From a virus: a stretch of DNA of 64,000 nucleotides. Position 1 is the first letter of the stretch; each line of letters begins with the position of its first letter. Of the stretch, positions 9,000 to 63,972 are shown piece after piece. The notes beneath the pieces were generated by a model that saw only the letters and a list, made by a program, of their open reading frames with translations, was not told the origin of the DNA and ran no database searches. The translations under genes and the position numbers were made by a program. The stretch lies in IMG/VR virus record IMGVR_UViG_3300031578_000012. The stretch is one strand, 5' to 3'.

Positions 9000-11900
9000 G
9001 CGATAATCCATGGTTAACTAGAATAAAAGAGCCACCTTCGGTAGAGGAATTACCGGTTGAAGCGGCAGAACAGACCGGTCAAGCCGGTTTGCCTGTACCT
9101 AGTAATAATCCGTGGTTGGATAGGATTCCAAAGGAGCTAAGAACAGCGGTCAGTTCTACTTTTGTAGCGCCGGCTGTTCAGTATGATCCTATAAAGGAGC
9201 TTTTGGACCAGGGATTTACTTTCGAAGAAGCTGTAGAGACTGCTCACGCAGATTATGATAAGCAGCTTAAGAGCACTAAAAAATCTATCCGTGATGATAT
9301 CAATAATATAGTTGAGGGAGGTTATTATGATTATTACTATGGAGTAGGTACCAAGAAGCAAAAAGTGGATCGTAAGGTTAAGCGGGGTCAGGATGAACTT
9401 ACTGACAAGGCTTTAGATATTGCTCTTGACGAGATAAATAGAGAATTGTTTGAGGAGGTGGGAGACAATAGGCTTGGTATTGAGTTGAGTAAGATAGCCG
9501 GTATAGATATAGGAGAGATAACAGATCCGGTTGTATTTGGGAAAGCGCTGGATCAATTAGATCGTCAGGTAGCTTTAGATGTTAATAAGATATTACCAGA
9601 TGAAGCACTCAAGCGGGTAGACATTCAGAATCAAATCGATGCGGAGTTAGCAAGAAAGCCAACTGAAGAAGTACCTACAGATTGGCCTAAGATACGTAGT
9701 CTTCAGACTCAGTTATCAAGTACTGGAATTGTATTCTATGATCCTATTACTGGTGAGCGTGTGATGGAAGGAGAAGAGATGTCTGAGGAATCTCAGGAGG
9801 TATTAAATCTTATAAAACAGTTTGAACAGGAATATGGAGAGAGGCTAACCACTAAAAAAATGTTGGCCGATGAGTTCATGTTAACTTACGGAGCCTGGTT
9901 AGATGCTAAAGATAGGTTTGAAGAGCATGTCCTTCCATATAGGGAGGAAACTATTCGGCGTGGTGAAACCATGGTAGGTGATAGAGGAATTTCTTCTACT
10001 CATTATCTTTTCAGGCAAATGGGGGCTCCTCTTAATGTTAAAGCTTATCAAGCTAAGAAAACAGAACTGGATGCCCAGATGTATGCGTTATCTATGCTAT
10101 ACTGGGCTAATTATTCTCCAGAGAACATAAAGAAAGATTTAGGTTATCATTTACAGACTTCTGCAAAGGCGTTTACTACTGGGGCTCTAATTCCTATGAT
10201 GTTAAGATCTTCTGAATATAATGAATTATTCGGAACTCCAGATAGAGAAGTGTTGGATATTATGAAGAGGGCCATGTTAGAATTGAATATTCCTATGACT
10301 GAGGGAGAGAAAAAGAAATTTGATGTTACATTAGGGGAGAAAGTTAATCAATTAGGCTCTGGTTTATTTGGGTTCATGATACCTTTAGGGGCTTTAGGTA
10401 AAGTTGAGAAAGCTGCGTGGACTTTAACAAAGTTAGATGATGCTGTAAGATTATTATCTCAAGGCAGCAAATTAAAAAAGATATTAGCGGGATCAATAAA
10501 GGTCGCTTCTGAGGAAGGTAAATTTTTATTGGCTGGGGCTCCTGGTGGGGCTGGTGGTGGTTTCTCTACGGGTACGCAAATCGCTAATGCAGCTTGGGGT
10601 AGGGTAGTCAAATCGGGGGCGAATATATCTCCATGGACCAGGTTTGTTATGGGTATGGTTACGGGGGGTACCGGTATGACTGCTGGTATGTACGGGGCTC
10701 AGACTATGGAGGCTGGTGTAGAGGCTCTTCTTAGTGATTCTAAACTTAGTCATGAGTTGAAGACTATGTTTGGGGATCTGTCTATTCCAGAGGAGCGAAA
10801 GGAATTCTATGAAGAGTTATTAGCTAGGGTTATGGTGAACATGGCATTTGCTGGGGCGCATTCTAGGTTTTCTGATCCTAAGTATGATGGGTTGAAGCAA
10901 ATGGAGAAGGATTTTCGTAAGGCCGGCCGTGAAGAAGATGCAAATGAAGTTAAAACTGTGATAGATGGGTCTAAGCAGGCTGATAAGATACTGTTGGAGC
11001 TTGGATCACAGGGGCGTATAGGTAAAGAACTTACTCTTGGTGAGGAGGGTATGCGGATGCGTGAGAGCAATAAAGAAGCAGCACGTAGGGCCAAGGCTGA
11101 AAAATTAGCAACAACTTATCAGGAAAGGCTTACAAAATTGAAAAGCGAACAGCCAGAACTATTTTGGTCTGTAGATGTCCCTGACCCAGAGGTTCTAGCT
11201 ACAGCTGCTGAGACTGGTCGTTTAGTAGATGTTGGTGGGGGTATGGGTCTTGTTACTCCAGAAGGGAGGATGATAGGGTTGTTTAGGTACAAACCTGGGG
11301 CTAAAGGAGTAGCTAAAGCCGTACAAGAGAAGAGAATTGAAGAAGGAGGCGATCATTTAGATGTTTATGATATTACCCCAGAGGGTAAGAAAACATCTTT
11401 GGTTGATAATTATAAGAAGCAGGGATTAGTGGTTGTCGGAAGGCTTAAGTGGAATGAGAAGTTGGCTCCAAAGGATACTCCACAAAAAGTAAAAGATCAG
11501 AAGCCAGATGTAGTATTTATGGTGTTGGATAAGAATAATGTATTAAAGCCGGAGGATCTTAATAAAAGATTTAACTCTTATAATAAGGTTGTAGAGTATC
11601 AGCAGGAGATGGTGGCTGAGATGCGAAGAAAACAAAAGACAGGGGAAGCTACCGATGCATTTTTTGGTGATGTATCTGCAGGAAGGAAAGGCATGTCTGA
11701 CGTTGAGTATGAACCTACATTAGAAATTACTCCCGAAAAGCATGGTGAATTTATTAAGCATTATAATCCTCATAGAGGTAATTTTGATGATCACATAAGT
11801 AAGTCTATACCAGGTCACAAAGAGATTCAGGTCGCTACAGGAGATGCCATTATTAAAACCATATCTAGTGGTAAGGTTGCGGATATAGGGGGTTCTGAGA

Positions 11901-14900
11901 ATAGTTGGGCCAAGGCTATTACTGAAATGTCTAAAGGTAAGATAGAAACCGTTACAGTGGATCCACAGGAAGACATGCATAGACATAGTGATAAGACTCC
12001 TGTTAAAGGAAATACTTTTGTGGAGAAACCAATAATGCATGAATGGGAGGGTAAAACTCCGTGGAAGCCAAAACGTGAATATGATGTAGTTCATGAGAGT
12101 ATGGTGTTTCAGTTTGTCTCAAACGAGCGTAAAGCTCAACTTGATTATATCAGGGATAATGTGTTGAAAAAGGACGGGCTGCTGTTGTTAGAGGAGAAGT
12201 TCATCCCGAAAGGCAGTAAAGAATCCGAGACGAAGACGGATGAATTTGGAAGAAAAATAGTCACTGATTCAGAAATGGAAGTAGCTGAGGGGTTGGATAT
12301 GATTCATGGAGCACTTCAGGAAAGTAAGGGTAAGTTTACTCTTACAGATAAAATAAAACAAGCGGAAATAGTGGGTAAAAATCTTGTTATAAGAGATGCT
12401 GACCATATCAATGAACTTAAGAAAGATGCTAGTGATGCTATAAAGAAAATAGATAAGGCCAAAAAAGATGGAGGCGTTTTCAAGATAGGAGAGATGGAAG
12501 TTGAGGGAGTCGAACTTAACATGTGGCGTGACAATTATGAACGGAGAATATATCGTTTAGATAAATTACAGGAGTTTAAGGAAGATAAAAATGTGGTATC
12601 ACAATTAGAGTGGTCAAAGAATGAAGCTAAGAAGGATGAATACAAGGCCAAGTATTTCAAGCCAGAGGAATTGACGAAGAAGAAGGAAGAGGTTATCTTA
12701 GGCATGCATGAGAACATGGTTTCGAATGAAGCTCTGGAGCAGCTTCTGGTAGAAAGTTTTGATCATGTGTTTCGGTATTGGGATAGCGGTAATTTTAAAG
12801 GTTATGCGGCAACCAATAGTTTGACTAAAGCTCAGGCGTTTGCACAAAATATAGGAAATACAGGGCAGAGTGAGTTTAGTTCTTCTCCAATAGAGTTTAT
12901 TAAAGGAGGTTCTGGAAAGCCTCCGAAGACTCCTATTCAACGCAGGATTGATAGAGCATTAGGTATACCAAGAGAAAAGAAGAAAATTGTTGTAGAGGAG
13001 TATGCTGCCTTAAAGGATCAATTAAGGTTAGAAGCAAAGGTAGGGAAGGAGATTGTAAGTAATGCTGCAGAGGTGCGGGAGATATTTGCGGATTTCATTC
13101 GGTCCAAGAAAGGTATTGCAGGACTGGATGCTAAACTTTCTACAGCAATGATGAATAAGATAAATAGGATAGATTTTACTAAGCCAAAGACCATCCAGGA
13201 AGCTATGGATTATATTGATCGGGTTTTAGAAGATGCTAGATTTCGTCAGGAGTTGATTGAGTTTGAAAGTACATATGAGAATATAGAAAAAATCGTTGAT
13301 CCAACTACTTATGAGAAGAAGGAGGGTGGGATTTTAAAAGGTAAGGATAAGTTCTTTATTGAGACTAAAGATCAGTTGGTCGAGTTAGGAAAGGAGGCCA
13401 GGGAAGGTAATTGGGAAGAAGCTCAACAGAAACTTTTGGATAAAATAAAGAATCTTGAAGGGGAATATCCTACGGCTGAAGAGTATTTGGAAATCGAGCG
13501 TTTAGGTTTCCAGGGGATTTTAAACGAGACCTTCAAGGGAAATTTAGCAGAACTTAAAGGCAGGTTTCAGGATCTTAAGGAGATACGTAAAGACGGGCGT
13601 ACTAAAGCAGCAGCAGCTCGTATTGCTTATAGGGACGCTATGGATACTGTTAGGGGCTCTATATTTAATATTCTTACAGGGCAGGGAGAGAAAATGCCGG
13701 GATTGACTCCATCTGAAAAAGCTAATTTTAGAATGTCTTCAGCTAAGAAATACTTGAGTAGGCTTGATTGGGTAGCTACAGATTCTTGGCCTACATATCT
13801 TGATAAGTTATCAAAGAACGATAAGACTTCTAAGCCTTATCGGAGTTATCTTAGCACGTTTCTTCTTGATATGAAGACCGCTTCTGAGCAGGGAGAGTAT
13901 AAAGGCCTTGAAACCCATATAAACACGATATCAGATAAATATAAAGAAATTAATGGTTTAAAGTCTAGTAGGGATGTGGTTAAATTATCCATAGAACGTA
14001 CTAAAATGATTGAAGAAGTGTCTTGGATAGATGATATATCTGGAGAACGGAAGGTAGAGCAGATGACTCAGAATCAAATGTATGATAGGTGGATGAAACT
14101 GCAGGATCCAACACTGGTTCGTAGTATGGAGACCATGGGATTATTAAGAGAGGGTGAACTAACAAATAAAGCTAAAGCCTTGGAGGAGGCGTTGTTACCA
14201 GAAACAAGAGAGTGGGCAGATTGGCAATTATATGAGTTTTATCCGGAATATTATAAAGGTATAAATGAGGTGTATCGTAAAATATTTGGTACAGATATGT
14301 CGTATAATCCATTTTATTCTCCATTATTCCCGGAGGTAGAAGGAAAGAAGGCTCCACGTGAAGATCAGCTATTGGCTGATGTTACCATTAGAAATACTGC
14401 AAATAATTCTAGCTTAAAGGCTCGTACCAAGCATGGGTTAACTTTGCGTACTATGGATGGGGACAGGGTTTTAATTAACCATGTACAGAAAATGGAGTTT
14501 TTTAAGAATTGGGCAGAAACTATACGTACTTATGAAGAAATATTTTCAAATGGGGATATACGTGAAACTATACGACAGAATTTTGGTGATAAATATGTGG
14601 AATATGGAGATTGGTGGATAGATCAGTTTGCCCGTAGGCCTAAACAGATTACGGAGTTAGATCGTGTTACAACTAAGATCCGCACAACATTTACTTTAGG
14701 TTCATTAGGTCTTAAAGCTGTTCCGCTAGTTAAGCAGCTTACTTCCATACCGGCTTTTATGGATAATATACCTATCAAAGAGTTTGTTAATCCTGTAACT
14801 GCCGTAGATAATGCAACTGATTTTTTTAGTAAGAAAAAGAGATCACAATTAGAGGATACAGAAGGATATGGTTGGGATGTATTAATGACTTCTGTTTATA

Positions 14901-15901
14901 TGCAGGAGCGTGTACGTAAAGGATGGGAGCGAGATGTTATGCTTGTTATGCAAAAGGATTATCAAAACGTTTTGAATTCTGGCCTGGATTGGAAGAGCAA
15001 CATGATGTTTTTGACAAAATGGGGAGATAGGGCTGCTATTTTTGTAGGGGGCTGGCCGGTGTATAAATATCATTATAAACAGGCTATTAATGATAATTTG
15101 TCTCCTAAAGAAGCACATACTATAGCGATAAAGGAGTTTGAAACAGCTGCTAGGAGTTCACAGCAGTCTGGTATGGTGGCGGATTTATCTTTTGTACAGC
15201 AAGCTAATCCATATTTAAAAATGCTGACTATGTATAAGACAGCCCCATTTCAATATCATAGAAAAGCGGTTGGAGCTGTCCGTAATTTAATAGCTGGTAG
15301 GGAGACCTGGGATAAGGCTCTTAAGACCGTAGCAATTTATCATGTCATTATTCCAGCTATGTTTCAATTGACTGCAAATGGGTTTAATTGGGACGGGGAA
15401 GAAATGTTACGTTCTGCTTTGATAGGTAATTTTAATAATATGTTTGCTGTAGGTGATGCTGTTCAGGGAATAATGGATATATTAGGTAAGGAGCCGTGGT
15501 CTTATCAAGCTTCTCCTATTGAATCTGTTCCAGTTGATGTGGCAAAAGTTATAGGGGATTTAGGAGCCCTTGATTATGATGATATTACTTTCTATGATGT
15601 GTGGGAAGCATTAGATAATTTGGCTAGGCTTACTGGGAATGTAACCGGGTATCCTACAGACGCTTCTTATAATACACTAGATGGACTATTAGATATTATT
15701 TCAGATGATACTAATTATCCTGTTCGTAGGATTCTTGGGTGGAGTGAGTACAGATTAGATCGGGGATATGACCTGCCAAACGCGCTTCAAAATTGGTTAT
15801 TGAACAATCCGGATGCAAGTTTAGAGGAAATAAAAACTAAGGAATTAGAGATAAAAAATATTGAAGGAAGAGAGTTGAAGCCTAGGATTATAGGCGAATA
15901 A
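8996..15901 (+). CDS. Giant (2301 aa) polyvalent virion protein with an embedded CmoA-like SAM-dependent methyltransferase domain
   Basis: 6.9-kb ORF. The segment at nt ~11760-12230 carries NFDDHISKSIPGH, VADIGGSENSW, VTVDPQEDM, DVVHESMVFQFVS and LKKDGLLLLEEKF, which are collinear with the CmoA motifs FDERV..SVPGY, VYDLGCSLG, AVDNSPAM, ASMVVLNFTLQFL and LNPGGALVLSEKF. Gly-rich and hydrophobic segments flank it. Confidence 0.85.
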   Translation: MSDNPWLTRIKEPPSVEELPVEAAEQTGQAGLPVPSNNPWLDRIPKELRTAVSSTFVAPAVQYDPIKELLDQGFTFEEAVETAHADYDKQLKSTKKSIRDDINNIVEGGYYDYYYGVGTKKQKVDRKVKRGQDELTDKALDIALDEINRELFEEVGDNRLGIELSKIAGIDIGEITDPVVFGKALDQLDRQVALDVNKILPDEALKRVDIQNQIDAELARKPTEEVPTDWPKIRSLQTQLSSTGIVFYDPITGERVMEGEEMSEESQEVLNLIKQFEQEYGERLTTKKMLADEFMLTYGAWLDAKDRFEEHVLPYREETIRRGETMVGDRGISSTHYLFRQMGAPLNVKAYQAKKTELDAQMYALSMLYWANYSPENIKKDLGYHLQTSAKAFTTGALIPMMLRSSEYNELFGTPDREVLDIMKRAMLELNIPMTEGEKKKFDVTLGEKVNQLGSGLFGFMIPLGALGKVEKAAWTLTKLDDAVRLLSQGSKLKKILAGSIKVASEEGKFLLAGAPGGAGGGFSTGTQIANAAWGRVVKSGANISPWTRFVMGMVTGGTGMTAGMYGAQTMEAGVEALLSDSKLSHELKTMFGDLSIPEERKEFYEELLARVMVNMAFAGAHSRFSDPKYDGLKQMEKDFRKAGREEDANEVKTVIDGSKQADKILLELGSQGRIGKELTLGEEGMRMRESNKEAARRAKAEKLATTYQERLTKLKSEQPELFWSVDVPDPEVLATAAETGRLVDVGGGMGLVTPEGRMIGLFRYKPGAKGVAKAVQEKRIEEGGDHLDVYDITPEGKKTSLVDNYKKQGLVVVGRLKWNEKLAPKDTPQKVKDQKPDVVFMVLDKNNVLKPEDLNKRFNSYNKVVEYQQEMVAEMRRKQKTGEATDAFFGDVSAGRKGMSDVEYEPTLEITPEKHGEFIKHYNPHRGNFDDHISKSIPGHKEIQVATGDAIIKTISSGKVADIGGSENSWAKAITEMSKGKIETVTVDPQEDMHRHSDKTPVKGNTFVEKPIMHEWEGKTPWKPKREYDVVHESMVFQFVSNERKAQLDYIRDNVLKKDGLLLLEEKFIPKGSKESETKTDEFGRKIVTDSEMEVAEGLDMIHGALQESKGKFTLTDKIKQAEIVGKNLVIRDADHINELKKDASDAIKKIDKAKKDGGVFKIGEMEVEGVELNMWRDNYERRIYRLDKLQEFKEDKNVVSQLEWSKNEAKKDEYKAKYFKPEELTKKKEEVILGMHENMVSNEALEQLLVESFDHVFRYWDSGNFKGYAATNSLTKAQAFAQNIGNTGQSEFSSSPIEFIKGGSGKPPKTPIQRRIDRALGIPREKKKIVVEEYAALKDQLRLEAKVGKEIVSNAAEVREIFADFIRSKKGIAGLDAKLSTAMMNKINRIDFTKPKTIQEAMDYIDRVLEDARFRQELIEFESTYENIEKIVDPTTYEKKEGGILKGKDKFFIETKDQLVELGKEAREGNWEEAQQKLLDKIKNLEGEYPTAEEYLEIERLGFQGILNETFKGNLAELKGRFQDLKEIRKDGRTKAAAARIAYRDAMDTVRGSIFNILTGQGEKMPGLTPSEKANFRMSSAKKYLSRLDWVATDSWPTYLDKLSKNDKTSKPYRSYLSTFLLDMKTASEQGEYKGLETHINTISDKYKEINGLKSSRDVVKLSIERTKMIEEVSWIDDISGERKVEQMTQNQMYDRWMKLQDPTLVRSMETMGLLREGELTNKAKALEEALLPETREWADWQLYEFYPEYYKGINEVYRKIFGTDMSYNPFYSPLFPEVEGKKAPREDQLLADVTIRNTANNSSLKARTKHGLTLRTMDGDRVLINHVQKMEFFKNWAETIRTYEEIFSNGDIRETIRQNFGDKYVEYGDWWIDQFARRPKQITELDRVTTKIRTTFTLGSLGLKAVPLVKQLTSIPAFMDNIPIKEFVNPVTAVDNATDFFSKKKRSQLEDTEGYGWDVLMTSVYMQERVRKGWERDVMLVMQKDYQNVLNSGLDWKSNMMFLTKWGDRAAIFVGGWPVYKYHYKQAINDNLSPKEAHTIAIKEFETAARSSQQSGMVADLSFVQQANPYLKMLTMYKTAPFQYHRKAVGAVRNLIAGRETWDKALKTVAIYHVIIPAMFQLTANGFNWDGEEMLRSALIGNFNNMFAVGDAVQGIMDILGKEPWSYQASPIESVPVDVAKVIGDLGALDYDDITFYDVWEALDNLARLTGNVTGYPTDASYNTLDGLLDIISDDTNYPVRRILGWSEYRLDRGYDLPNALQNWLLNNPDASLEEIKTKELEIKNIEGRELKPRIIGE

Positions 15902-50410: not shown

Positions 50411-50712
50411 TCAGTTTCATATAAATGTTCAGCTATCTCTGGATGTACTTTTTTGAAGTATACGGAAATGAAGTCAGGATTGATATGATTAATCCCTTCT
50501 GATTCTAACCGGCGGACAGCATTTTGAAATTGTCTATCTATGCGTATACAAACAGTTATTAAATCCTTGTCACTTTTGTTCAATTTATCAAGTACTTGGA
50601 CTTTGATATGATGTGTGATTGCCTTGTGTAATTCTTGACTAATTTGAACATCATCTTCAATACAGGTTGAAGGCTTTTTACAAATCATATAGAATTCATC
50701 GTCTAGAAACAT
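50407..50712 (-). CDS. Hypothetical protein (101 aa)
   Basis: The start is trimmed to the ATG at 50712, because the track extension runs through the tRNA-like element TL1. ATGA overlap with the radical SAM gene. Confidence 0.6.
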   Translation of the reverse strand: MFLDDEFYMICKKPSTCIEDDVQISQELHKAITHHIKVQVLDKLNKSDKDLITVCIRIDRQFQNAVRRLESEGINHINPDFISVYFKKVHPEIAEHLYETE

Positions 50713-50736
50713 AATATTGATTTTAATATTAAATTT

Positions 50737-50780
50737 GTACCCCACCAGGATTCGAACCTGGTTAGTACCATACGGGGCTA
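50737..50780 (-). ncRNA. tRNA-like minihelix TL1 (acceptor stem + T-arm, no anticodon arm)
   Basis: RNA: UA[G]CCCCG-UAUGGUACUAA-CCAGG-UUCGAAU-CCUGG-UGGGGUA-C. The 5' UAG is the stop codon of ORF 50778..51074. Confidence 0.7.
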
Positions 50781-51074
50781 GAAGCAAACACTTACATATG
50801 TGGATTTGTCTGTTAAGCTTACTATCATAAGTAAGTCATCCACTTCATCAGGAGCTATACAATCCAGCGTTATTAAATACCTACCAACAGGAGTAAAGAT
50901 AGTAACAGATTCAAATGGATCAAGATAATCTGTGAATACAATGATATTTGTTGATGTCTCTTCTACAGTCACAATACCAGGACAGGCACCATTGGTAACC
51001 GTAATGTACGGCGGATGCATAATCTCACATGATGTGAGCAGAGCAATTGCAAGCAGCAAGAATAGAGTTTTCAT
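50778..51074 (-). CDS. Lipoprotein (98 aa)
   Basis: Signal peptide with lipobox LLTSC. Confidence 0.6.
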   Translation of the reverse strand: MKTLFLLLAIALLTSCEIMHPPYITVTNGACPGIVTVEETSTNIIVFTDYLDPFESVTIFTPVGRYLITLDCIAPDEVDDLLMIVSLTDKSTYVSVCF

Positions 51075-51586
51075 AACGTAGCTTTTTCGTAAACAGTCTC
51101 ACCATTGGAAAATGTAGCTACAACTCTCAAGGGTATGGAATAATCCTTGTAGATCTTCTCCAGCTTAGTAATAAGCTCTTCAGTGACCTGGTTAACCCAG
51201 TTAATGGCCCTGGTGGCCTGCTGGTTATTCAAACCTTCATAATTTAGATCATCCTGGTCCAGGCTGTATACCCAGTCGGATCCTCCTGTAGAGTATTGCA
51301 GAGCCCAATCCAGGTTGCAGCCAGCATAATATCCGCTACGTATGATAGCAGATACTCTAACTTCGATACAGATACCTCCCCAGTATCCATTGGTATTCAG
51401 ACTCCCAAGGACATGTGAAGGAAAGGATCTCAGCTCATGCCGGTCATGTCCTCCATCCTGGTATTCATCCAGCTGAGAGAGCTCGGACTCCAGGTTGTCT
51501 TTCAGATCCTGGTAGTCATAATCGTTCTCCAGCTCACACGCGAACACGCGGCTAGCGTTAACATTATGAAAATTACTTGTACTCAT
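51071..51586 (-). CDS. Hypothetical acidic protein (171 aa)
   Basis: ORF preceded by AGGAGGT (51591-51597). Confidence 0.65.
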   Translation of the reverse strand: MSTSNFHNVNASRVFACELENDYDYQDLKDNLESELSQLDEYQDGGHDRHELRSFPSHVLGSLNTNGYWGGICIEVRVSAIIRSGYYAGCNLDWALQYSTGGSDWVYSLDQDDLNYEGLNNQQATRAINWVNQVTEELITKLEKIYKDYSIPLRVVATFSNGETVYEKATL

Positions 51587-51615
51587 AATTACCTCCTATT
51601 TTTGATTAAACATTT

Positions 51616-51661
51616 GTACCCTGCCTGGAGTCGAACCAGGCCAAATACTATATCAGGGTTA
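51616..51661 (-). ncRNA. tRNA-like minihelix TL2
   Basis: RNA: UA[A]CCCUG-AUAUAGUAUUUGG-CCUGG-UUCGACU-CCAGG-CAGGGUA-C. The 5' UAA is the stop codon of ORF 51659..51907. Confidence 0.7.
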
Positions 51662-51907
51662 AGAAAATATTGACTGGTCCCCGGCCAGTGCTCTCTTCAT
51701 TAAATTAGACTTAGGCAGAACTTGCGTCCGGATCAAGAATTTCACGGTGTCCTTCTTCAAGCAATATTCCTTATGTTTACCTGGTTGCACTTCATAAAAC
51801 CGGATCTGGTTACCGGACCGGCGGATTTCCAGATGTAACCCGGTATATACACCTGCCCGGATCTGCTGCCCGGCTTGGTCTTTGAATTGTACTACAATTG
51901 CGCTCAT
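51659..51907 (-). CDS. Hypothetical protein (82 aa)
   Basis: ORF overlapping the upstream stop. Confidence 0.55.
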   Translation of the reverse strand: MSAIVVQFKDQAGQQIRAGVYTGLHLEIRRSGNQIRFYEVQPGKHKEYCLKKDTVKFLIRTQVLPKSNLMKRALAGDQSIFS

Positions 51908-52281
51908 ACCTTACAGTTAATAAGAGTATCACTATCAATATGATAGATAAAATCCTGCTTCAAAGTTTCACCAAGGAAGATAGCGGAAGATTTGTCCGTA
52001 TGTGATACTGAACATATATCCAGGTAAGTTTTACCCTCATGGATCCAGACTCCCAGGAAGAATCCACTTTGTAACCAGCACTTGTTGTCCTTGGCATACT
52101 CGGCAATAGCAATACTCAAGGTCTCCCAGTCGGTTGTATTCAGAACCCTATCATTTGCTATCCCTCCGATAACATAACCAGAGATGGGAGCCCGGCCAAG
52201 GTTATCTACAGTGCATCCTCCCGTATTCAGGGCTATTCTAGCGATCCGCTTGCTAAAAATTGATTTGAATTTGTTCTTCAT
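51904..52281 (-). CDS. Hypothetical protein (125 aa)
   Basis: ORF with an AGTATT box 24 nt upstream. Confidence 0.6.
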   Translation of the reverse strand: MKNKFKSIFSKRIARIALNTGGCTVDNLGRAPISGYVIGGIANDRVLNTTDWETLSIAIAEYAKDNKCWLQSGFFLGVWIHEGKTYLDICSVSHTDKSSAIFLGETLKQDFIYHIDSDTLINCKV

Positions 52282-52299
52282 GACTTCATAAATTAGATT

Positions 52300-52307
52300 A
52301 ATACTGG
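52300..52307 (-). promoter_or_regulatory. CCAGTATT box, 24 nt upstream of the ATG at 52281
   Basis: Member of the AGTATT motif family. Confidence 0.4.
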
Positions 52308-52309
52308 TA

Positions 52310-52483
52310 CTATCCCCATCCTTGCCCCCAAAGACATACAGCTATAACCGCAAAACATAAGACAGTGATTATTAGTACTTTGACTGCTATTTCAATCCTG
52401 GCTTCCCGCTTGCGTTCGGCCTCCGATTTTTCCCTGGTAACTGCCGGGGTTGGACGGAATGTGAAAACGTTACTGTGACTCAT
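52310..52483 (-). CDS. Small membrane protein (57 aa), not in the ORF track
   Basis: MSHSNVFTFRPTPAVTREKSEAERKREARIEIAVKVLIITVLCFAVIAVCLWGQGWG. It has a TM helix and fills an otherwise empty gap. Confidence 0.45.
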   Translation of the reverse strand: MSHSNVFTFRPTPAVTREKSEAERKREARIEIAVKVLIITVLCFAVIAVCLWGQGWG

Positions 52484-52501
52484 AACTTTAAAATATTAGT
52501 G

Positions 52502-52509
52502 AATACTAG
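52502..52509 (-). promoter_or_regulatory. CTAGTATT box, 24 nt upstream of the ATG at 52483
   Basis: Member of the AGTATT motif family, directly downstream of TL3. Confidence 0.4.
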
Positions 52510-52520
52510 AAATAAATTCG

Positions 52521-52566
52521 TGCCTGGTCCAGGATTTGAACCCGGACCGGATACCATTTCAGGCTA
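52521..52566 (-). ncRNA. tRNA-like minihelix TL3
   Basis: RNA: UA-GCCUGAA-AUGGUAUCCGGU-CCGGG-UUCAAAU-CCUGG-ACCAGGC-A. The 5' UAG is the stop codon of ORF 52564..52887. The acceptor stem has only 5 bp. Confidence 0.6.
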
Positions 52567-52887
52567 GTCAAGGATTGCGCTATACATTGACTGGTTGATC
52601 TTAAGCAATAAATACCTGGCCCGGTCAAATGTCTGGATCGCGCTGCCCCGCGATACGTTATACTTTGCTAGGATTGTTGGGTGGAATTCATTGTAGCTAA
52701 GATCTTGGACAAAATCAACTATTGATTTCTCCAATGGATTTGCATCAAGTGATTCACCTGTAAAGGGATTTCTGACCTGGCTAGTATCTCCGGACTTTTC
52801 AATGGCCTGGATCTGGCTGGCTAGGTACGCAGCGATAAATTTATCATCGGCTGCTGTGATCTTTTCACCGTTACAATACTTTTCCAT
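52564..52887 (-). CDS. Hypothetical protein (107 aa)
   Basis: ORF with an AGTATT box 24 nt upstream. Confidence 0.6.
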   Translation of the reverse strand: MEKYCNGEKITAADDKFIAAYLASQIQAIEKSGDTSQVRNPFTGESLDANPLEKSIVDFVQDLSYNEFHPTILAKYNVSRGSAIQTFDRARYLLLKINQSMYSAILD

Positions 52888-52905
52888 AATTGTAAATTTA
52901 AAATT

Positions 52906-52913
52906 AATACTAA
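52906..52913 (-). promoter_or_regulatory. TTAGTATT box, 24 nt upstream of the ATG at 52887
   Basis: Member of the AGTATT motif family, 4 nt downstream of TL4. Confidence 0.4.
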
Positions 52914-52919
52914 AACTTT

Positions 52920-52965
52920 GTACCCGGGTAAGGATTCGAACCTTACCTGTATACCATACGAGTTA
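52920..52965 (-). ncRNA. tRNA-like minihelix TL4
   Basis: RNA: UA[A]CUCGU-AUGGUAUACAG-GUAAGG-UUCGAAU-CCUUAC-CCGGGUA-C. The 5' UAA is the stop codon of ORF 52963..53193. Confidence 0.65.
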
Positions 52966-53193
52966 TCCAGTATAATTTGCGGCCCAATTATCAAAGGCTG
53001 ATATTATATCCCGGATTTGATTTGCTTCATATGAATAGTCAGATAGGTCAATAAATTTATCCTCCAATTGTCTGACTTCCTTTTGTCCAAAATTTTCATA
53101 TAATCCATGCTTACTGCATTTATCAATAAGTTTGGCCGTAGCTGCATTAATAGCCTTTTGTACTTTAATTAACTTTTCCATTGTATAAAGCAT
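52963..53193 (-). CDS. Hypothetical protein (76 aa; alternative start 53181)
   Basis: ORF between TL5 and TL4. Confidence 0.55.
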   Translation of the reverse strand: MLYTMEKLIKVQKAINAATAKLIDKCSKHGLYENFGQKEVRQLEDKFIDLSDYSYEANQIRDIISAFDNWAANYTG

Positions 53194-53205
53194 TAGTTAA
53201 AAGTC

Positions 53206-53252
53206 GCACCCTGTCCCGGTAACGATCCAGGACTAACACCAATGCAGGGTTA
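53206..53252 (-). ncRNA. tRNA-like minihelix TL5 (divergent T-loop)
   Basis: RNA: UA[A]CCCUG-CAUUGGUGUUAG-UCCUGG-AUCGUUA-CCGGGA-CAGGGUG-C. The 5' UAA is the stop codon of ORF 53250..53486. Confidence 0.6.
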
Positions 53253-53486
53253 TTTCAAAGGTTTGAACGTATCGGAGAACAGTATACAACCTCCATTGGC
53301 TTCAGCCTGTCCAATTAGATTAAAACCCAGCTGCTGCAATGTAATAACGGCCTGTCCCCAATAGTCATTATCTTCAATATTGACTATAATGTGCTGCCTA
53401 AATCTTAGCGAATTAATTGATATCCTGGATGGTTTGGTATCGGTAGGTCTAATAAACCGGATCTGAAATGCATGGTAATTTTTCAT
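53250..53486 (-). CDS. Hypothetical protein (78 aa)
   Basis: The start is trimmed to the ATG at 53486 (MKNYHAFQ). An AGTATT box lies 24 nt upstream. Confidence 0.55.
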   Translation of the reverse strand: MKNYHAFQIRFIRPTDTKPSRISINSLRFRQHIIVNIEDNDYWGQAVITLQQLGFNLIGQAEANGGCILFSDTFKPLK

Positions 53487-53490
53487 GGTT

Positions 53491-53661
53491 TTAAATATTA
53501 AGTAAATACTCAGAATTAATGGCATACTTTGCGGTGTGTATTCTTTTCGGAAATGGATATATATCCAGGAGCTCCTCCAATCTGTGAACCTCATGTATTA
53601 TACTGGTTAATGTCTCAAATGTACAAATCTGTTTTTGATTAGTGTTAGAAGGGGCACTCAT
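53491..53661 (-). CDS. Hypothetical protein (56 aa)
   Basis: The start is trimmed to the ATG at 53661 (MSAPSNTNQ). An AGTATT box lies 23 nt upstream, inside the 3' end of the preceding gene. Confidence 0.45.
   Translation of the reverse strand: MSAPSNTNQKQICTFETLTSIIHEVHRLEELLDIYPFPKRIHTAKYAINSEYLLNI
53505..53512 (-). promoter_or_regulatory. TGAGTATT box, 24 nt upstream of the ATG at 53486
   Basis: Member of the AGTATT motif family. Confidence 0.4.
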
Positions 53662-54376
53662 CGTTATTATTTTTAGTGAATACTGAAGTATTGGAACCGT
53701 AGATAACTTTAGAGTATACATACCTATCCAGGTTAGCTGAAGGCTTCACTACAATAGTATCTAACGTGTCCCTGAATTGAATCCAGGTTATGGCTTGCAC
53801 TTCGTGTGCTCGCAGGCCTACTTTCTTACCAGCTATAACATAAGCGCTAGAAAGATCCCTGTAACGCTTCTCAGTCATCCATATCTCAGGTATCTCTTTA
53901 ACTGCAAGATTAACCCTGAATGAATGCCGGTCAATAGTAACCGGGCCCTGCTTCTCAGGATGAAAGATATTGGTAAAGAATGCTGAAGTCTTATTAACTT
54001 CTTTATAACAACCTATCAACAGTCGAAGAATCTGTTTTTCTGATAGCTTGTTATCCAGGATCTTTAATGCTTTAAATTTATTCTTGTTGTAGGTAGTTAC
54101 AACCATTTGCTGGAAGCTATATCCAGCCTTGTGACCTCTGATAAGGTTAATTGAATCAATGATATTCTGTATCCAATTTGTCCCTGGGCTAAGCGCCGCA
54201 ATTACTCCACATACGGTATGTACGGGCAGGTTATGCTGATCGGCTATATAAATGGCTATTTCTTTAGCCCTGGTATACCAGGACAGACCCTCCAGACGCT
54301 GCTTCTCACTTGAATTGTGATACGCGGCCAGGATATTTGTAACCTGGGTGTTGATAGAAGGTAGGCTTTTTTTCAT
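53645..54376 (-). CDS. Hypothetical protein (243 aa)
   Basis: Largest ORF in the leftward early cluster. I can name no motif. Confidence 0.7.
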   Translation of the reverse strand: MKKSLPSINTQVTNILAAYHNSSEKQRLEGLSWYTRAKEIAIYIADQHNLPVHTVCGVIAALSPGTNWIQNIIDSINLIRGHKAGYSFQQMVVTTYNKNKFKALKILDNKLSEKQILRLLIGCYKEVNKTSAFFTNIFHPEKQGPVTIDRHSFRVNLAVKEIPEIWMTEKRYRDLSSAYVIAGKKVGLRAHEVQAITWIQFRDTLDTIVVKPSANLDRYVYSKVIYGSNTSVFTKNNNDECPF

Positions 54377-54380
54377 GGCT

Positions 54381-54530
54381 TTATAGATATTTATTCAATC
54401 CTGGTATACTTGAAAATTTCTCAGGGTATAATTTCATTTCACACCCACCACATCTATGTTTAATACCAATTACTGATCGAATTGTATTTCCACAATCTTT
54501 GCAAGTTGATTTGTAAACCTTTGTTTTCAT
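54381..54530 (-). CDS. Zinc-ribbon mini-protein (49 aa), not in the ORF track
   Basis: MKTKVYKSTCKDCGNTIRSVIGIKHRCGGCEMKLYPEKFSSIPGLNKYL has two CxxC pairs. ATGA overlap with the upstream ORF. Confidence 0.5.
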   Translation of the reverse strand: MKTKVYKSTCKDCGNTIRSVIGIKHRCGGCEMKLYPEKFSSIPGLNKYL

Positions 54531-54703
54531 GCTTTCAGTAGTTTAGTGGCATGTCTGGTAGCACTTTGTATACTAGTAAATTGCTTGTTTGTTCTGAAGT
54601 GTCTCCAGGATAGCTTTGTTCTTTTCACTACGTGAATAGGAACATTTTCATAAGACTCAATTGTAATTGAGCGGTTACCTTTGGTAATAATTGTTGTATT
54701 CAT
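54527..54703 (-). CDS. Hypothetical protein (58 aa), not in the ORF track
   Basis: MNTTIITKGNRSITIESYENVPIHVVKRTKLSWRHFRTNKQFTSIQSATRHATKLLKA. It is the first ORF downstream of TL6. Confidence 0.45.
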   Translation of the reverse strand: MNTTIITKGNRSITIESYENVPIHVVKRTKLSWRHFRTNKQFTSIQSATRHATKLLKA

Positions 54704-54728
54704 TTGATTGTAAGTTAGTTAAACATTG

Positions 54729-54787
54729 TGCCAGTAATGAGATTTGAACTCATGGCCATTATTATTTTTGGCTTCCAGTTAACTGGC
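54729..54787 (-). ncRNA. tRNA-like element TL6 (acceptor stem + T-arm with 27-nt linker)
   Basis: RNA: GCCAGUU-AACUGGAAGCCAAAAAUAAUAAUGGCC-AUGAG-UUCAAAU-CUCAU-UACUGGC-A. It lies at the 5' end of the leftward operon, 25 nt before the ATG at 54703. Confidence 0.55.
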
Positions 54788-55138
54788 AAAAAGAAGAGTA
54801 AGTAAGGACTCTTGCAATTGTCACGGAAAGGGCTGCCCATGCCTGTTACCAGTACCCTTAACCCCCCCTCTATTGCTAGATAAGGAAAGACGTTATATTA
54901 TCCCTATCAATATAGAAAATCCTACGTCTTCCTTGGTCTCCGAACTTCAGATCCATCCGGTTAATTACTCCATATCGCCTTGAAATCCATCTCTCCGGGT
55001 AGGTTTGCGGTCATCCTTACTTACTTATCATGTCAATGTACTCATTTTCAGCGACTTACGAGCTTCTGTGCTGCTCTGCGCGTGTTTCAATGGTATAAAG
55101 GTAATAATACGTTACGACAATGCAAACTTGAGTATCAG

Positions 55139-61697: not shown

Positions 61698-61736
61698 AAT
61701 AAAAATATTTAGTTAAAAATTAAATTAAGATTTCTA

Positions 61737-62365: not shown

Positions 62366-63078
62366 TAGGCTTCTGATTTTACAGGGTTTGTTTCTGATTC
62401 TGGACTATCCGGAATTTCTGGCATTACTTCTTCCGGAAGCTTTATATCTGTAATCCTTGGCGGTTTCTTACCTTTAATCCGAGCCATTTCCAAAATCATC
62501 CATCTCCAGGCCAGCATTGCATGATGATATACCTGTAAGTATTCATGTTCAATGAGCTTGGGTAAATCTTCTTTTATGTTAATACTTAGATCATTAACAA
62601 ATACATCCAGTTCACTCTCCAGATTATTAACCTGTATTTCATAATCAAACTTTGTAAATTTATTTGGATTGATAACAGCAAGCTTGTTCATTGCAATTTC
62701 TCCGCTATCTAGCAATATGTCTTCAAAGATGTGATTTAAAGTAACATACACTACCTCCAGATTGTTAATAACATTATGTATGTACTGTGAATGTTTTCCC
62801 ATGTCCAAATAGTCAATTTCTTTTTGGACTTCCTGCATAGTTTGACTATAATTGTGAGCATTTTGACACAGGGCTGTATACTCTGGTTGAGATAGAGTTT
62901 TAACAAATTCCTTATCTTTATACTGAGTATGGTATGACTCCAGCTTTTTCATAACAGTTTGGAGGGTCTTTTGGTGATGTAATATCGCTCCTTTGTTATA
63001 GTTAAGAGATTTAACCATATTGGTCACCTGGGCCATTGTATCCCGCATAATCTTTGCAATCTTCGAATCTTGTAGCAT
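62365..63078 (-). CDS. Hypothetical protein (237 aa)
   Basis: The start is trimmed to the ATG at 63078 (MLQDSKIAKIM). The track extension runs through tRNA-like element TL7. Confidence 0.65.
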   Translation of the reverse strand: MLQDSKIAKIMRDTMAQVTNMVKSLNYNKGAILHHQKTLQTVMKKLESYHTQYKDKEFVKTLSQPEYTALCQNAHNYSQTMQEVQKEIDYLDMGKHSQYIHNVINNLEVVYVTLNHIFEDILLDSGEIAMNKLAVINPNKFTKFDYEIQVNNLESELDVFVNDLSINIKEDLPKLIEHEYLQVYHHAMLAWRWMILEMARIKGKKPPRITDIKLPEEVMPEIPDSPESETNPVKSEA

Positions 63079-63097
63079 AGTTTCTGGTTTAAATGAG

Positions 63098-63188
63098 GGC
63101 AGAAGGGGGGATTCGAACCCCCGGGTAGTAATTACTACTCCAGATCCAGTAGGAAAAGCCAGAAACCTACTGGCTATTTTACTTCCGC
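63098..63188 (-). ncRNA. 91-nt tRNA-like element TL7 with G3-U70 acceptor stem and non-canonical core
   Basis: Acceptor GCGGAAG/CUUCUGC (G3-U70), T-arm GGGGG-UUCGAAU-CCCCC and discriminator C. The core forms hairpins GCCAG-UAGGUUU-CUGGC and GUAGU-AAUU-ACUAC, but I find no standard D or anticodon arm. Confidence 0.55.
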
Positions 63189-63338
63189 CTACCATAATAT
63201 CGTCCCCGCCGAAGCGGGGGCCTGACTATGCAGCTACCTTGTGGCTCCATACAGGACTTAATTGAACAACTTTGCCAGTTATTCCTCAGTGATTTCAATT
63301 CGTGTTGTACTCTGCATGCTGTCAAAACATTCAGCCCC
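63189..63338 (-). ncRNA. ssrA: tmRNA coding piece (5' GGGGCUG, P2 5' strand, tag frame, UUCG-capped hairpin); 3' boundary uncertain
   Basis: RNA: GGGGCUGAAUGUUUUGACAGCAUGCAGAG...CUGGCAAAGUUGUUCAAUUAAGUCCUGUAUGGAGCCACAAGGUAGCUGCAUAG-UCAGG-CCCCGC-UUCG-GCGGGG. The candidate tag frame at 63276..63226 ends ...SHKVAA-stop. Confidence 0.75.
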
Positions 63339-63585
63339 GTAAGATACGATCTGGGGGTACGCCCAGGAGAAGCCTACCACGTATGGTAACCCGGCTCCCA
63401 GGACCCCAGATCGCGAGTTCTTACAAGAGGGGAGGAAAATTCTAGTCTAAGCACCTATCATTTACGCTCCTCAACGTATGATTTATGGTACTACTAGAAT
63501 CATCCCTCAAGACCATTGCCGTAAAACACCCCTTGGTCGCAAAAGCGTCCGCAGGGCTTGCGGTTGGATTTTTTATCATAAGTAG
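63339..63585 (-). ncRNA. 247-nt structured intervening segment between the tmRNA acceptor and coding pieces
   Basis: Hairpin 63549-63563 (CCGCA/UGCGG). A long rod at 63428-63511 (AUUCUAGU/ACUAGAAU plus GAGGG/CCCUC). A long rod at 63348-63412 (GAUCUGGGG/CCCCAGAUC, capped by UACCA-UACG-UGGUA). Confidence 0.6.
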
Positions 63586-63650
63586 TGGAGCTGCGGGGCT
63601 TCGAACCCCGGTCCAAACATGCTTTCCTTCACGAATATAACGAAATCAAA
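63586..63650 (-). ncRNA. ssrA: tmRNA acceptor piece (P2 3' strand, GGAC, T-arm, CAGCUCC-A 3' acceptor strand); 5' boundary uncertain
   Basis: RNA: UUUGAUUUCGUUAUAUUCGUGAAGGAAAGCAUGUUUGGAC-CGGGG-UUCGAAG-CCCCG-CAGCUCC-A. It pairs with the GGGGCUG and the three P2 segments of the coding piece downstream. Confidence 0.75.
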
Positions 63651-63670
63651 GAACGTATTTGTTAGAAATA

Positions 63671-63678
63671 TATACTAA
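63671..63678 (-). promoter_or_regulatory. TTAGTATA box upstream of the tmRNA acceptor piece
   Basis: Variant of the AGTATT box, 29 nt upstream of the first P2-pairing nucleotides. Confidence 0.35.
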
Positions 63679-63808
63679 ATATCTAACAAAAATAAAATTG
63701 GTCGCGTAGTTTATCTGTTCCCATCTTGTCTTATAAGAACGTCTTCTATGCAAGAGCAGACCGGCTATACTGATTACTCATACCCTAGCCTAATGATATG
63801 CACCTTTG

Positions 63809-63892
63809 ATGCAATGAAAGGATTCGAACCTTTGACCTGAAGCACGTTCTATGCCGCGCGGCAACCGCTCTATCCAACTGAGCTACATTGCA
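63809..63892 (-). tRNA. 84-nt tRNA-like gene with canonical acceptor, D- and T-arms but no recognisable anticodon arm
   Basis: UGCAAUG-UA-GCUC-AGUUGGAUA-GAGC-G-[27 nt GUUGCCGCGCGGCAUAGAACGUGCUUC]-AGGUC-AAAGG-UUCGAAU-CCUUU-CAUUGCA-U. The 27-nt centre does not form a 5-bp/7-nt-loop arm. Confidence 0.5.
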
Positions 63893-63899
63893 TACCTTG

Positions 63900-63972
63900 T
63901 AGCGGGGACAGGAGTCGAACCTGCAGTCGAAAGCTTATGAAGCTCTTGAGTTACCATTACTTCCACCCCGCA
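63900..63972 (-). tRNA. tRNA with anticodon CAU (Met, or Ile2 type), 73 nt, CCA not encoded
   Basis: Acceptor UGCGGGG/CCCCGCU (U1-U72 mismatch), anticodon arm AGAGC-UUCAUAA-GCUUU, variable CGACU and T-arm GCAGG-UUCGACU-CCUGU. The D-stem is weak. Confidence 0.75.

Follow-up and report, generated by a model that had tools for sequence, protein, structure and literature searches.

Anticodon-less tRNA-like elements at the gene borders of a phage small-gene operon belong to a covarying family of structured elements

Six short tRNA-like elements (TLs; TL1 to TL6) were located in the intergenic gaps of a leftward small-gene operon within a 64-kb stretch of viral DNA (IMG/VR record IMGVR_UViG_3300031578_000012; this whole stretch is referred to as the window). 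Five of them, TL1 to TL5, have one common fold, the upper half of a tRNA with neither D stem nor anticodon arm. These elements, with TL6 as a variant, are well supported as members of a phage-borne family of structured elements of 39–44 nt that lies on the sense strand of small-gene operons. The six elements had been proposed in an earlier reading of the window made from its letters alone (the sequence-only reading). A check of the sequence found all of them on the minus strand at the positions it had given, and the T-stem and T-loop sequences quoted there were correct. On the whole, the observation was confirmed with corrections, fold and family are well supported, and a mechanism based on mRNA processing appears plausible.

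The minus-strand run of small open reading frames (ORFs) with the TLs spans 50.7–54.8 kb of the window, and all intergenic gaps of at least 60 nt within these borders are occupied, each by one of the six elements. The operon is presumably an early one. Most of its ORFs matched no family, except for a DUF7178 protein and a radical-SAM protein encoded just downstream.

Architecture of the elements

TL1 to TL5 (class A) start with a 5' strand of 5–6 nt, which forms an acceptor-like stem of 5–6 bp. It is followed by a linker of 11–13 nt of the type YA-UGGU-R, present as UAUGGUA or the variants AUAUAGUA, AAUGGUA and AUUGGUG, and by a T stem of 5–7 bp with a G-C closing pair next to the loop. The 7-nt T-loop reads UUCGAAU, UUCGACU or UUCAAAU, in TL5 alone AUCGUUA. 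Both 3' strands are continuous and comprise together 11–12 nt; after the helix stand A or G, C, A or G, and A (an R-C-N-A trailer). The junction between acceptor and T stem shifts among the copies (5/7 or 6/6), while the sum is constant at 11–12 bp. In all five elements the last base of the upstream stop codon (TAA or TAG) is at the same time the first paired base (UA/R, the slash marking the edge of the helix). Minimum free energy (MFE) folding gave the proposed layout for TL1, TL2, TL4 and TL6; TL3 and TL5 have close alternatives.

Several details differ from the sequence-only reading. A single layout had been ascribed to all six elements, which holds for TL1 to TL5 and fails for TL6, a separate subtype not found by the covariance model introduced below. 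The 7-nt 5' strand exists in TL6 only, TL1 to TL5 having 5–6 nt, and the proposed 5–6-bp stem corresponds to measured T stems of 5–7 bp with a moving junction. The single unpaired C or A proposed for the 3' side of the helix is in fact a purine with a nearly invariant C behind it. The overlap with the stop codon, the conserved R-C-N-A trailer and a TTTAACYAA box downstream were absent from that reading.

Tests against chance and against known RNAs

A strict descriptor, which demanded the T-loop UUCRANN, at least 11 bp in the two stems together and a GG-containing linker of 8–15 nt, had four matches on both strands of the 64 kb, and these were TL1 to TL4 on the minus strand. Two hundred Markov-simulated windows contained on average 0.06 matches, with a maximum of one. 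The covariance model R1 (6+6 pairs) was seeded with six unrelated IMG/VR elements of equal geometry, none of them from the window, and the remaining elements were realigned by Infernal. With filters off, R1 recovered TL1 to TL5 at full length with 26–45 bits (E 1e-10 to 8e-5). Below them, R1 matched nothing in the 64 kb but T arms of real tRNAs, with about 17 bits. Since R1 never saw this genome and yet recovered five TLs, the observation is confirmed for TL1 to TL5. Alignment with MAFFT and RNAalifold yielded no more than three pairs of the T stem, since copies differ by one register in the position of the acceptor/T junction.

All class A elements of the window lie on the minus strand. TL1 (50735..50780; R1 45.3 bits, E 1e-10, full length) has an MFE fold that fits the layout and reads UA/GCCCC-gUAUGGUACUA-ACCAGG-UUCGAAU-CCUGGU-GGGGU-A-C-AA; the TAG of a 98-aa ORF (50778..51074) ends on its first paired base. 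TL2 (51614..51661; 39.3 bits, E 7e-9) has the linker AUAUAGUAUUUG and the T-loop UUCGACU, and the TAA of an 82-aa ORF overlaps its first paired base. The 5/7 geometry is realized in TL3 (52518..52566; 30.2 bits, E 4.5e-6), with the strands GCCUG / GUCCGGG-UUCAAAU-CCUGGAC / CAGGC and then A-C-G-A, and in TL4 (52918..52965; 43.2 bits, E 4.6e-10), with ACUCG / GGUAAGG-UUCGAAU-CCUUACC / CGGGU and then A-C-A-A. Their first paired bases are overlapped by the TAG of a 107-aa ORF and the TAA of a 76-aa ORF, respectively. TL5 (53204..53252; 26.2 bits, E 8e-5), situated after a 78-aa ORF, combines the divergent loop AUCGUUA with the linker CAUUGGUGUUAG.

The TLs had been described as not being tRNAs, and the searches agree. 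ARAGORN calls in the window were confined to 63097–63972, with none at the six TLs, and Rfam 15, searched down to E ≤ 10, detected neither tRNA nor anything else at the TLs, real tRNAs being found at 63.8–64.0 kb only. D stem and anticodon arm are missing, and the linker of 11–13 nt is too short for a D arm or an anticodon arm. Full tRNAs with wrongly set borders were ruled out by the negative ARAGORN and Rfam results. The Rfam models for mascRNA-menRNA, YrlA and viral tRNA-like structures had no match in 50500–55000 at E ≤ 10, and none at E ≤ 0.1 in four other loci (L042, L065, L026 and L009); in the window the YrlA model matched only a real tRNA, with 24 bits. Weak Rfam matches in the region to FopS and to small nucleolar RNA or internal ribosome entry site models were at chance level and were rejected.

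Family and covariation

The pattern TATGGTA-N(3-10)-GGTTCGAATCC, which specifies neither closing stem, was present at 75 IMG/VR loci with a sharp preference for an 8-nt gap; seven of the loci were within ARAGORN tRNAs. A T stem of at least 5 bp was formed in 46 of 50 distinct matches, versus 7.1 with the 3' flanks swapped, and the 5' strand closed the helix to at least 11 bp in 17 of the 50, versus 0.54 (maximum 4) with the flanks swapped. R1 yielded 93 matches in 76 sources. Family statistics were calculated on 43 distinct copies after removal of larger tRNA-like RNAs (class B, described below). The share of pair cells that were actually paired was 97.8 % versus 56.0 % in shuffles (0 of 500 shuffles), and the covariation score was 0.98 versus 0.20 in shuffles and 0.09–0.18 in slid controls. 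Compensatory double changes were observed at 11 of the 12 pairs, the remaining pair being the invariant G53-C61. As the 43-copy alignment was fitted to the model, these statistics lean toward structure; the flank-swap test is free of that bias. The compensatory changes in the T stems had been taken as a sign of a conserved RNA fold, an interpretation now borne out by strong covariation across 43 distinct copies from many phage contigs. Conservation and covariation in related genomes were likewise found, in the Infernal family and in the relatives L042 and L065.

The 3' strand has 12 nt in 35 of 42 elements, 11 nt in six and 13 nt in one, and the elements measure 39–44 nt. Conservation among 25 rows without the seed pattern extends to U(-2)A(-1), the linker YA-UGGU-R, G53, U54, U55, C56, R57, A58, U60, C61 and the 3' R-C-N-A, with the A at -1 kept in 24 rows. 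G-U pairs are more frequent than A-C combinations (17 versus 5). ORF coverage was higher on the own strand than on the opposite strand for 42 of 44 elements, and in about 20 of these 44 the first paired base is also the last of the stop codon. The excess of G-U together with the same-strand ORF coverage argues for folding of the sense transcript.

A slightly narrower pattern (gap 6–9) had 24 matches in 596 Gb of genomes from bacteria and archaea, and only two or three of these were TL-like. The family can be regarded as essentially viral and rare in cellular genomes. One TL-like element (L100, 1712–1760, minus strand, R1 40 bits) is located between two small ORFs on a contig of Lentilactobacillus kosonis NBRC 111893 and is presumably prophage-borne.

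None of the cultured phages is closely related. Phages of INPHARED had no megablast match to 48–58 kb of the window, and single-protein searches of IMG/VR with the DUF7178 protein and a 171-aa protein revealed no relatives. Exact-protein look-up retrieved only 100 % identical copies of the same phage (L001–L004), thus no population variation could be used. The phage is present in SRR8554503/05/12 and in JGI 3300031669. An alignment-based locus search with a small basic protein returned only the two contigs already known. These two IMG/VR contigs are distant relatives: L065/L107, with local tblastn identities to the window of 32 % for the DUF7178 protein and 55 % for the small basic protein, and L042/L108, with 51 % for the 78-aa protein and 47 % for the small basic protein. 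Both have eight class A TLs each, on one strand and within a stretch of 3.1–3.5 kb with small ORFs; the remainder of the 12 kb has none. A TL is kept 3' of the gene for the 78-aa protein in the window (TL5) and at the same place behind its homolog in L042, with entirely different stem sequences. Between two TLs of L065, an ORF (3443–3889, plus strand) encodes an HNHPSG...D motif, which we take to be typical of RadC/JAB-like proteins and to fit an accessory or anti-defence cluster; a TL neighbour in L019 is, by our reading of its sequence, presumably an ArdC-like protein. Other lineages have one to three TL copies, some of them in tandem, and the neighbouring genes are mostly small and unannotated. 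Two different TLs in tandem, about 130 nt apart and 3' of a 190-aa ORF, were observed in L026 (7675–7842), L038 (9461–9662), L047, L066 and L069; in one of the two, the loop reads UUCGAUU and the closing pair at the second position is A-U.

Arrays of this kind could be the product of gene shuffling at the DNA level, with the TLs as linkers whose short homologies or hairpins move small early genes between phages, comparable to the promoter-early-stem-loop (PeSL) cassettes of T4-type phages or to integron attC sites. The arrays consist of small ORFs, each with a similar element and a leader box, and the gene content between the TLs varies among the window, L042 and L065 while the TLs persist. 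However, the stems covary and the copies share only about 18 conserved bases, which is poor recombination homology. The preponderance of G-U over A-C and the strictly sense orientation point to the transcript, the conserved bases are those of the tRNA elbow, and no integrase was found among the operon proteins or near the TLs. Shuffling linkers are therefore considered very improbable. Integron attC sites and T4-type PeSL as such were rejected because the operon proteins include no integrase, sigma-70 matches are at chance level and the stems differ and covary; attP-like tRNA 3' fragments were dropped since a complementary 5' strand is present.

Decayed remnants of a tRNA cluster, or ordinary terminators or promoters, would require no function of the elements themselves. 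tRNA genes and tRNA-like RNAs are present elsewhere in the window, and phage tRNA clusters are often interspersed with small ORFs. Against decay stand an identical, precise internal deletion in every copy, the compensatory evolution, and positions kept across phages at 30–55 % protein identity. A terminator scan flagged none of the six TLs (12 sites in total versus 7.4 expected), and no U-tract follows the helix. Matches to sigma-70 promoters (-35/-10 hexamers, 16–18-nt spacing) numbered 32 in the region versus 31.1 expected; one overlaps TL6 and none is consistently placed after TL1 to TL5, in a search limited to the sigma-70 type. Terminators and sigma-70 promoters were dropped as the identity of the elements, for want of a U-tract and with promoter matches at chance level. 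The T-loop as a -35 box for the TTTAACYAA box was rejected as well, as the spacing is 18–21 nt and the covariation of the stems would be left unexplained. Strand asymmetry, covariation, the missing U-tract and chance-level promoters argue against the shuffling linkers as well as against remnants, terminators and promoters; the last three are extremely unlikely.

Comparison with tRNA and known tRNA-like systems

The TLs share with tRNA the T-arm bases G53-C61 and U54-U55-C56-R57-A58 and an acceptor/T stack of 12 bp, followed by a discriminator-like purine. The split of this stack is 5/7 or 6/6 in the TLs, not 7/5. In tRNA the elbow is formed by G18/G19 with U55/C56, by U54-A58 and by G53-C61, and the 12-bp stack with the discriminator acts as a ruler for RNase P, RNase Z and the CCA-adding enzyme. 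The GG of the linker had been placed where the D-loop G18-G19 would contact the T-loop; this agrees with the sequences, in which the linker GG and the elbow invariants G53-C61, U54, U55, C56, R57 and A58 are all kept. For comparison of the trailers, 247 distinct ARAGORN tRNA calls from the same viral loci had C as last base in 166 cases and AAA as the commonest next triplet (84 of 247); the window's own tRNAs continue with CAAG or CAAA. The TL trailer C-A-A-A or C-G-A-A agrees with these trailers of genuine viral tRNA genes, which supports the likeness to tRNA.

Among known systems, t-elements and mitochondrial punctuation have in common with the TLs tRNA-like folds at gene borders of polycistronic or precursor mRNA and a T arm of the GGTTCRANYCC type, which in the TLs is also found on the sense strand. 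Plant mitochondrial t-elements, which were detected by way of this GGTTCRANYCC motif, have been shown or proposed to direct RNase P and RNase Z cuts that make mRNA ends (PMC1920247). Some mitochondrial stop codons at tRNA-punctuation cuts are completed after processing by polyadenylation (PMC11112384), and these codons straddling the cut resemble the UA/R of the TLs. RNase P cleaves phage RNAs and operon mRNAs, too (PMC11143913). t-Elements are, however, imperfect cloverleaves and mitochondria use real tRNAs, whereas the TLs are uniform at 39–44 nt, reach 8–9 copies per phage operon and are known from sequence alone. In the early operon of T7, host RNase III cuts intercistronic sites and leaves stabilising 3' hairpins. 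These sites are analogous to the TLs in position and spacing, being structured and intercistronic with one before the first gene, but they are long irregular duplexes, while the TLs are tRNA mimics with a different presumed enzyme.

The tRNA-like domain of transfer-messenger RNA (tmRNA) resembles the TLs in its acceptor stem, a D-loop-like GG segment that lacks the D stem, a T arm and the lack of an anticodon arm. The sole Rfam hint at any TL was to tmRNA, at L065 2860–2889, with 15.4 bits versus a gathering score of 47. G3-U70, helix 2, the pseudoknots and the tag reading frame of tmRNA are not present in the TLs, which are embedded in mRNA and occur in multiple copies. The third pair of the TLs is CG in 22, UA in nine, AU in three, GC in three and UG in two cases, never G-U. 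An identity as alanine or histidine minihelix was dropped, given the lack of G3-U70 and the A at position -1.

mascRNA of MALAT1, the TMERs of MHV68 and YrlA share with the TLs a non-decoding tRNA mimicry. mascRNA and the TMERs are excised by RNase P and/or RNase Z. Bacterial Y RNAs of the YrlA type are reported to contain a tRNA-like module and to be present in phages too (PMC4201824). These RNAs are cloverleaf-like or possess a Ro-binding stem, and their Rfam models do not match the TLs. Minihelices of acceptor and T arm are minimal in vitro substrates for RNase P, RNase Z, the CCA-adding enzyme and some synthetases. They have the 12-bp coaxial acceptor/T helix and the T-loop in common with the TLs; synthetic minihelices are plain hairpins, whereas the TLs are natural and add a UGGU bulge of 11–13 nt that enters the helix 5–7 bp from the loop.

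No anticodon-less tRNA-like intercistronic repeat in phages was found described in the open full-text literature. Thousands of unnamed candidate viral RNAs, some of them called tRNA-like, are listed in a survey of 2023; in the text consulted this design is not described, and the list may include it unremarked. That no repeated tRNA top-half element between phage cistrons was known to the sequence-only reading is in line with Rfam 15 and the open full-text literature, in neither of which one was found. Whatever its function, this is a widespread, covariation-supported family of structured RNA that is absent from Rfam 15. The novelty lies in the minimal architecture and in a new host class for putative tRNA-like processing signals, which are otherwise of a known kind. 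The family represents a natural experiment on the smallest RNA that presents a tRNA elbow and an acceptor end, and the TLs provide an operon-boundary marker for the annotation of uncultured phages.

Proposed function

From the mimicry, the position and the precedents we infer, as the likeliest role, one in processing: host tRNA-maturation enzymes would recognise the TLs and punctuate or cap the polycistronic mRNA, a proposal that may well be right and may equally well be wrong. The polycistronic transcript would fold TLs at its gene borders, and the host would handle each of them as a pre-tRNA. A cut by RNase Z on the 3' side, behind the discriminator-like purine, is the variant we favour. It would leave the upstream message with its stop codon and a compact, exonuclease-resistant TL cap, the 3' end of which could be extended by the CCA-adding enzyme, and the downstream message would begin with a short leader, about 25–40 nt before its own ATG. 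An additional RNase P cut on the 5' side is possible; it would separate A from R in the stop codon and free the TL as a small RNA. Such a role would be similar to that of the T7 early RNase III sites or of mitochondrial tRNAs and t-elements, performed by a minimal tRNA mimic.

An RNase P cut within the stop codon, mirroring the mitochondrial junctions, would be a possible extension of the analogy. In its complete form, this would be a phage counterpart of mitochondrial tRNA punctuation based on a reduced tRNA of about 42 nt that lacks the anticodon; each TL would be excised by the host's RNase P together with RNase Z, and CCA-tagged TLs would accumulate. With the RNase P site inside the stop codon, the upstream messages would be left with ...UA at the end, and their fate would be decided by 3' A-addition restoring UAA or by trans-translation, with the phage's own permuted tmRNA candidate (63226-63644) as a possible partner. 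We consider this complete form decidedly unlikely.

Several points weigh against processing by tRNA-maturation enzymes. An RNase P cut at the 12-bp boundary would remove the last base of the stop codon, which looks costly unless RNase Z acts alone or the codon is repaired. The acceptor-like stem has only 5–6 bp and the entry point of the linker is variable, unlike in tRNA; the work on minihelices makes recognition by tRNA-processing enzymes plausible, which for the TL design is a prediction only. Folding-energy z-scores of the six TLs are modest (-0.9 to -2.5). The TTTAACYAA box is present after many TLs and also without a TL, so the unit may partly serve downstream initiation. Finally, identity to the DNA polymerases of the closest cultured phages is below 32 %.

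The elements may instead stay uncleaved, as a structural cap or protein-binding site that blocks 3' exonucleases, insulates cistrons, or couples termination to initiation 14–40 nt downstream. They might then dock on a partner that binds tRNA elbows, e.g., the ribosomal L1 stalk or L5, SmpB, or a phage protein. With the stop codon ending on the first paired base, the terminating ribosome must melt the 5' strand, and the next ATG lies at a short, regular distance with the conserved TTTAACYAA box in between. The resemblance to the tRNA-like domain of tmRNA, of which the phage carries a permuted candidate, would also suit such a function. T-loop/GG elbow, 12-bp rule and R-C-N-A trailer, however, exceed the needs of a cap and fit the features that processing enzymes recognise. 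TL6, at the operon head, lacks a convincing upstream ORF, and a candidate for the binding protein was not identified. An uncleaved cap is rather unlikely in our view.

The number of copies per genome and their location among small accessory genes, including by sequence reading the RadC/JAB-like (L065) and ArdC-like (L019) genes, would be in accordance with decoys or sponges for host factors that act on the acceptor/T-arm half. These could protect or reprogram the tRNA pool, with defence toxins targeting the acceptor end, nucleotidyltransferase toxins, or tRNA-modifying or CCA-adding enzymes as proposed targets. The confinement of the mimicry to the anticodon-free half of tRNA agrees with this. 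A decoy does not need the strict placement at stop codons and gene borders, though, and a free-standing small RNA gene or array would be simpler. No linked defence or counter-defence gene was identified, and the phage tRNA countermeasures known to us concern anticodon loops. Decoys are improbable.

If processing by host tRNA-maturation enzymes is true, phages have evolved a minimal, portable tRNA mimic that turns these enzymes into mRNA processors for their own operons. Processing of mRNA by tRNA enzymes is established for mitochondria; for phage mRNAs we found no description.

TL6 and the leader boxes

TL6 (54728..54788, minus strand) consists of a 7-bp acceptor stem UGCCAGU/ACUGGCA, the linker segment UAACUGGAA, a hairpin GCCA-10 nt-UGGC, the T arm AUGAG-UUCAAAU-CUCAU, a U, the 3' strand and a C. 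The extra hairpin of 4 bp with a 10-nt loop, inserted between UAACUGGAA and the T arm, sets it apart from class A, and R1 did not find it with filters off. Its MFE structure is this three-part fold (z -2.4). TL6 is situated at the operon head without a convincing ORF upstream; only a 41-aa ORF (54715..54840) crosses it. The ortholog in L065 (2564–2628) has the same acceptor, two compensatory pairs in the T stem and one in the extra hairpin. A TL6-specific pattern search returned only L065-identical copies and one chance match. Directly 5' of TL6 (54813–54788, minus strand) lies a weak 6-bp hairpin AAGAGU/ACUCUU with an 8-nt loop, then CUUUUU. The 5' half of TL6 is overlapped by a chance-level sigma-70-like match, TTGCCA-17-AATAAT (54789–54761, minus strand).

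The TTTAAC[CT]AA box is usually located about 5 nt 3' of a TL and 11–17 nt before a start codon. It occurs also without a TL, and many copies are present in L042 and L065; it could be a leader, initiation or promoter element. In the window, on the minus strand, the box TTTAATCAA (51602..51610) stands 5 nt after the A-C trailing TL2 and 16 nt before an ATG. The box TTTAACTAA follows TL5 (53193..53201), 11 nt before an ATG, and TL6 (54715..54723), 11 nt before the ATG of the first ORF. A further copy of TTTAAC[CT]AA is located at 61717–61709 (minus strand). A second leader motif, CTAGTATTAAyTyTCAATAAT, precedes start codons in the TL-free downstream half of the operon (49175–49155 and 48933–48911, minus strand) and is also present after TL3 and TL4.

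Other tRNA-like RNAs

Matches to a GAGUAUGGUACUAUUG-T arm pattern in tRNA arrays turned out to be the different, larger RNA of class B, which was left out of the family statistics. Class B RNAs are tRNA-like, about 115 nt long and equipped with two T arms; they lie within the tRNA arrays of large phage contigs, e.g., L017 (about 2276–2390, plus strand) and L053 (863–979, plus strand), and also in L015, L018, L023, L028, L031, L044, L070 and L074. They begin with the acceptor and a D arm, and the anticodon arm is replaced by a hairpin whose loop has 4 or 8 nt. Next comes T arm 1, separated from T arm 2 by one or two small hairpins, AGUA-UGG-UACU among them; the acceptor 3' strand and A-C-R-A come last. 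ARAGORN made no call for the class B RNAs, and the Rfam tRNA model spans L053 with a large insertion. Class B has the module UAUGGUA-spacer-T arm-3' strand-A-C-R-A in common with the TLs, which may point to the origin of the TLs.

The right end of the window carries further tRNA-like RNAs, all on the minus strand. A candidate for a permuted two-piece tmRNA at 63226–63644 reached 44.9 bits with the Rfam model tmRNA_permuted (gathering score 47; E 1.9e-7); the corresponding ARAGORN call extends over 63135–63677 with the tag peptide GKVVQLSPVWSHKVAA and a stop. In a tRNA at 63809–63892 (Rfam 47.5 bits) a 17-nt stretch replaces the 7-nt anticodon loop, and ARAGORN reported it as 'tRNA-???'; it could contain an intron or be an unusual decoder. 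A tRNA-like sequence of 92 nt at 63097–63188 was called tRNA-Glu by ARAGORN and scored 25.3 bits with the Rfam tRNA model (gathering score 29). It is succeeded by TTTAAACCAG, and the probable start of an ORF lies directly behind it, near 63078. On the plus strand, residues 929–1075 of a 2301-aa ORF (8996–15901) match phrog_4752, a PHROG family annotated as tRNA methyltransferase (E 4e-11).

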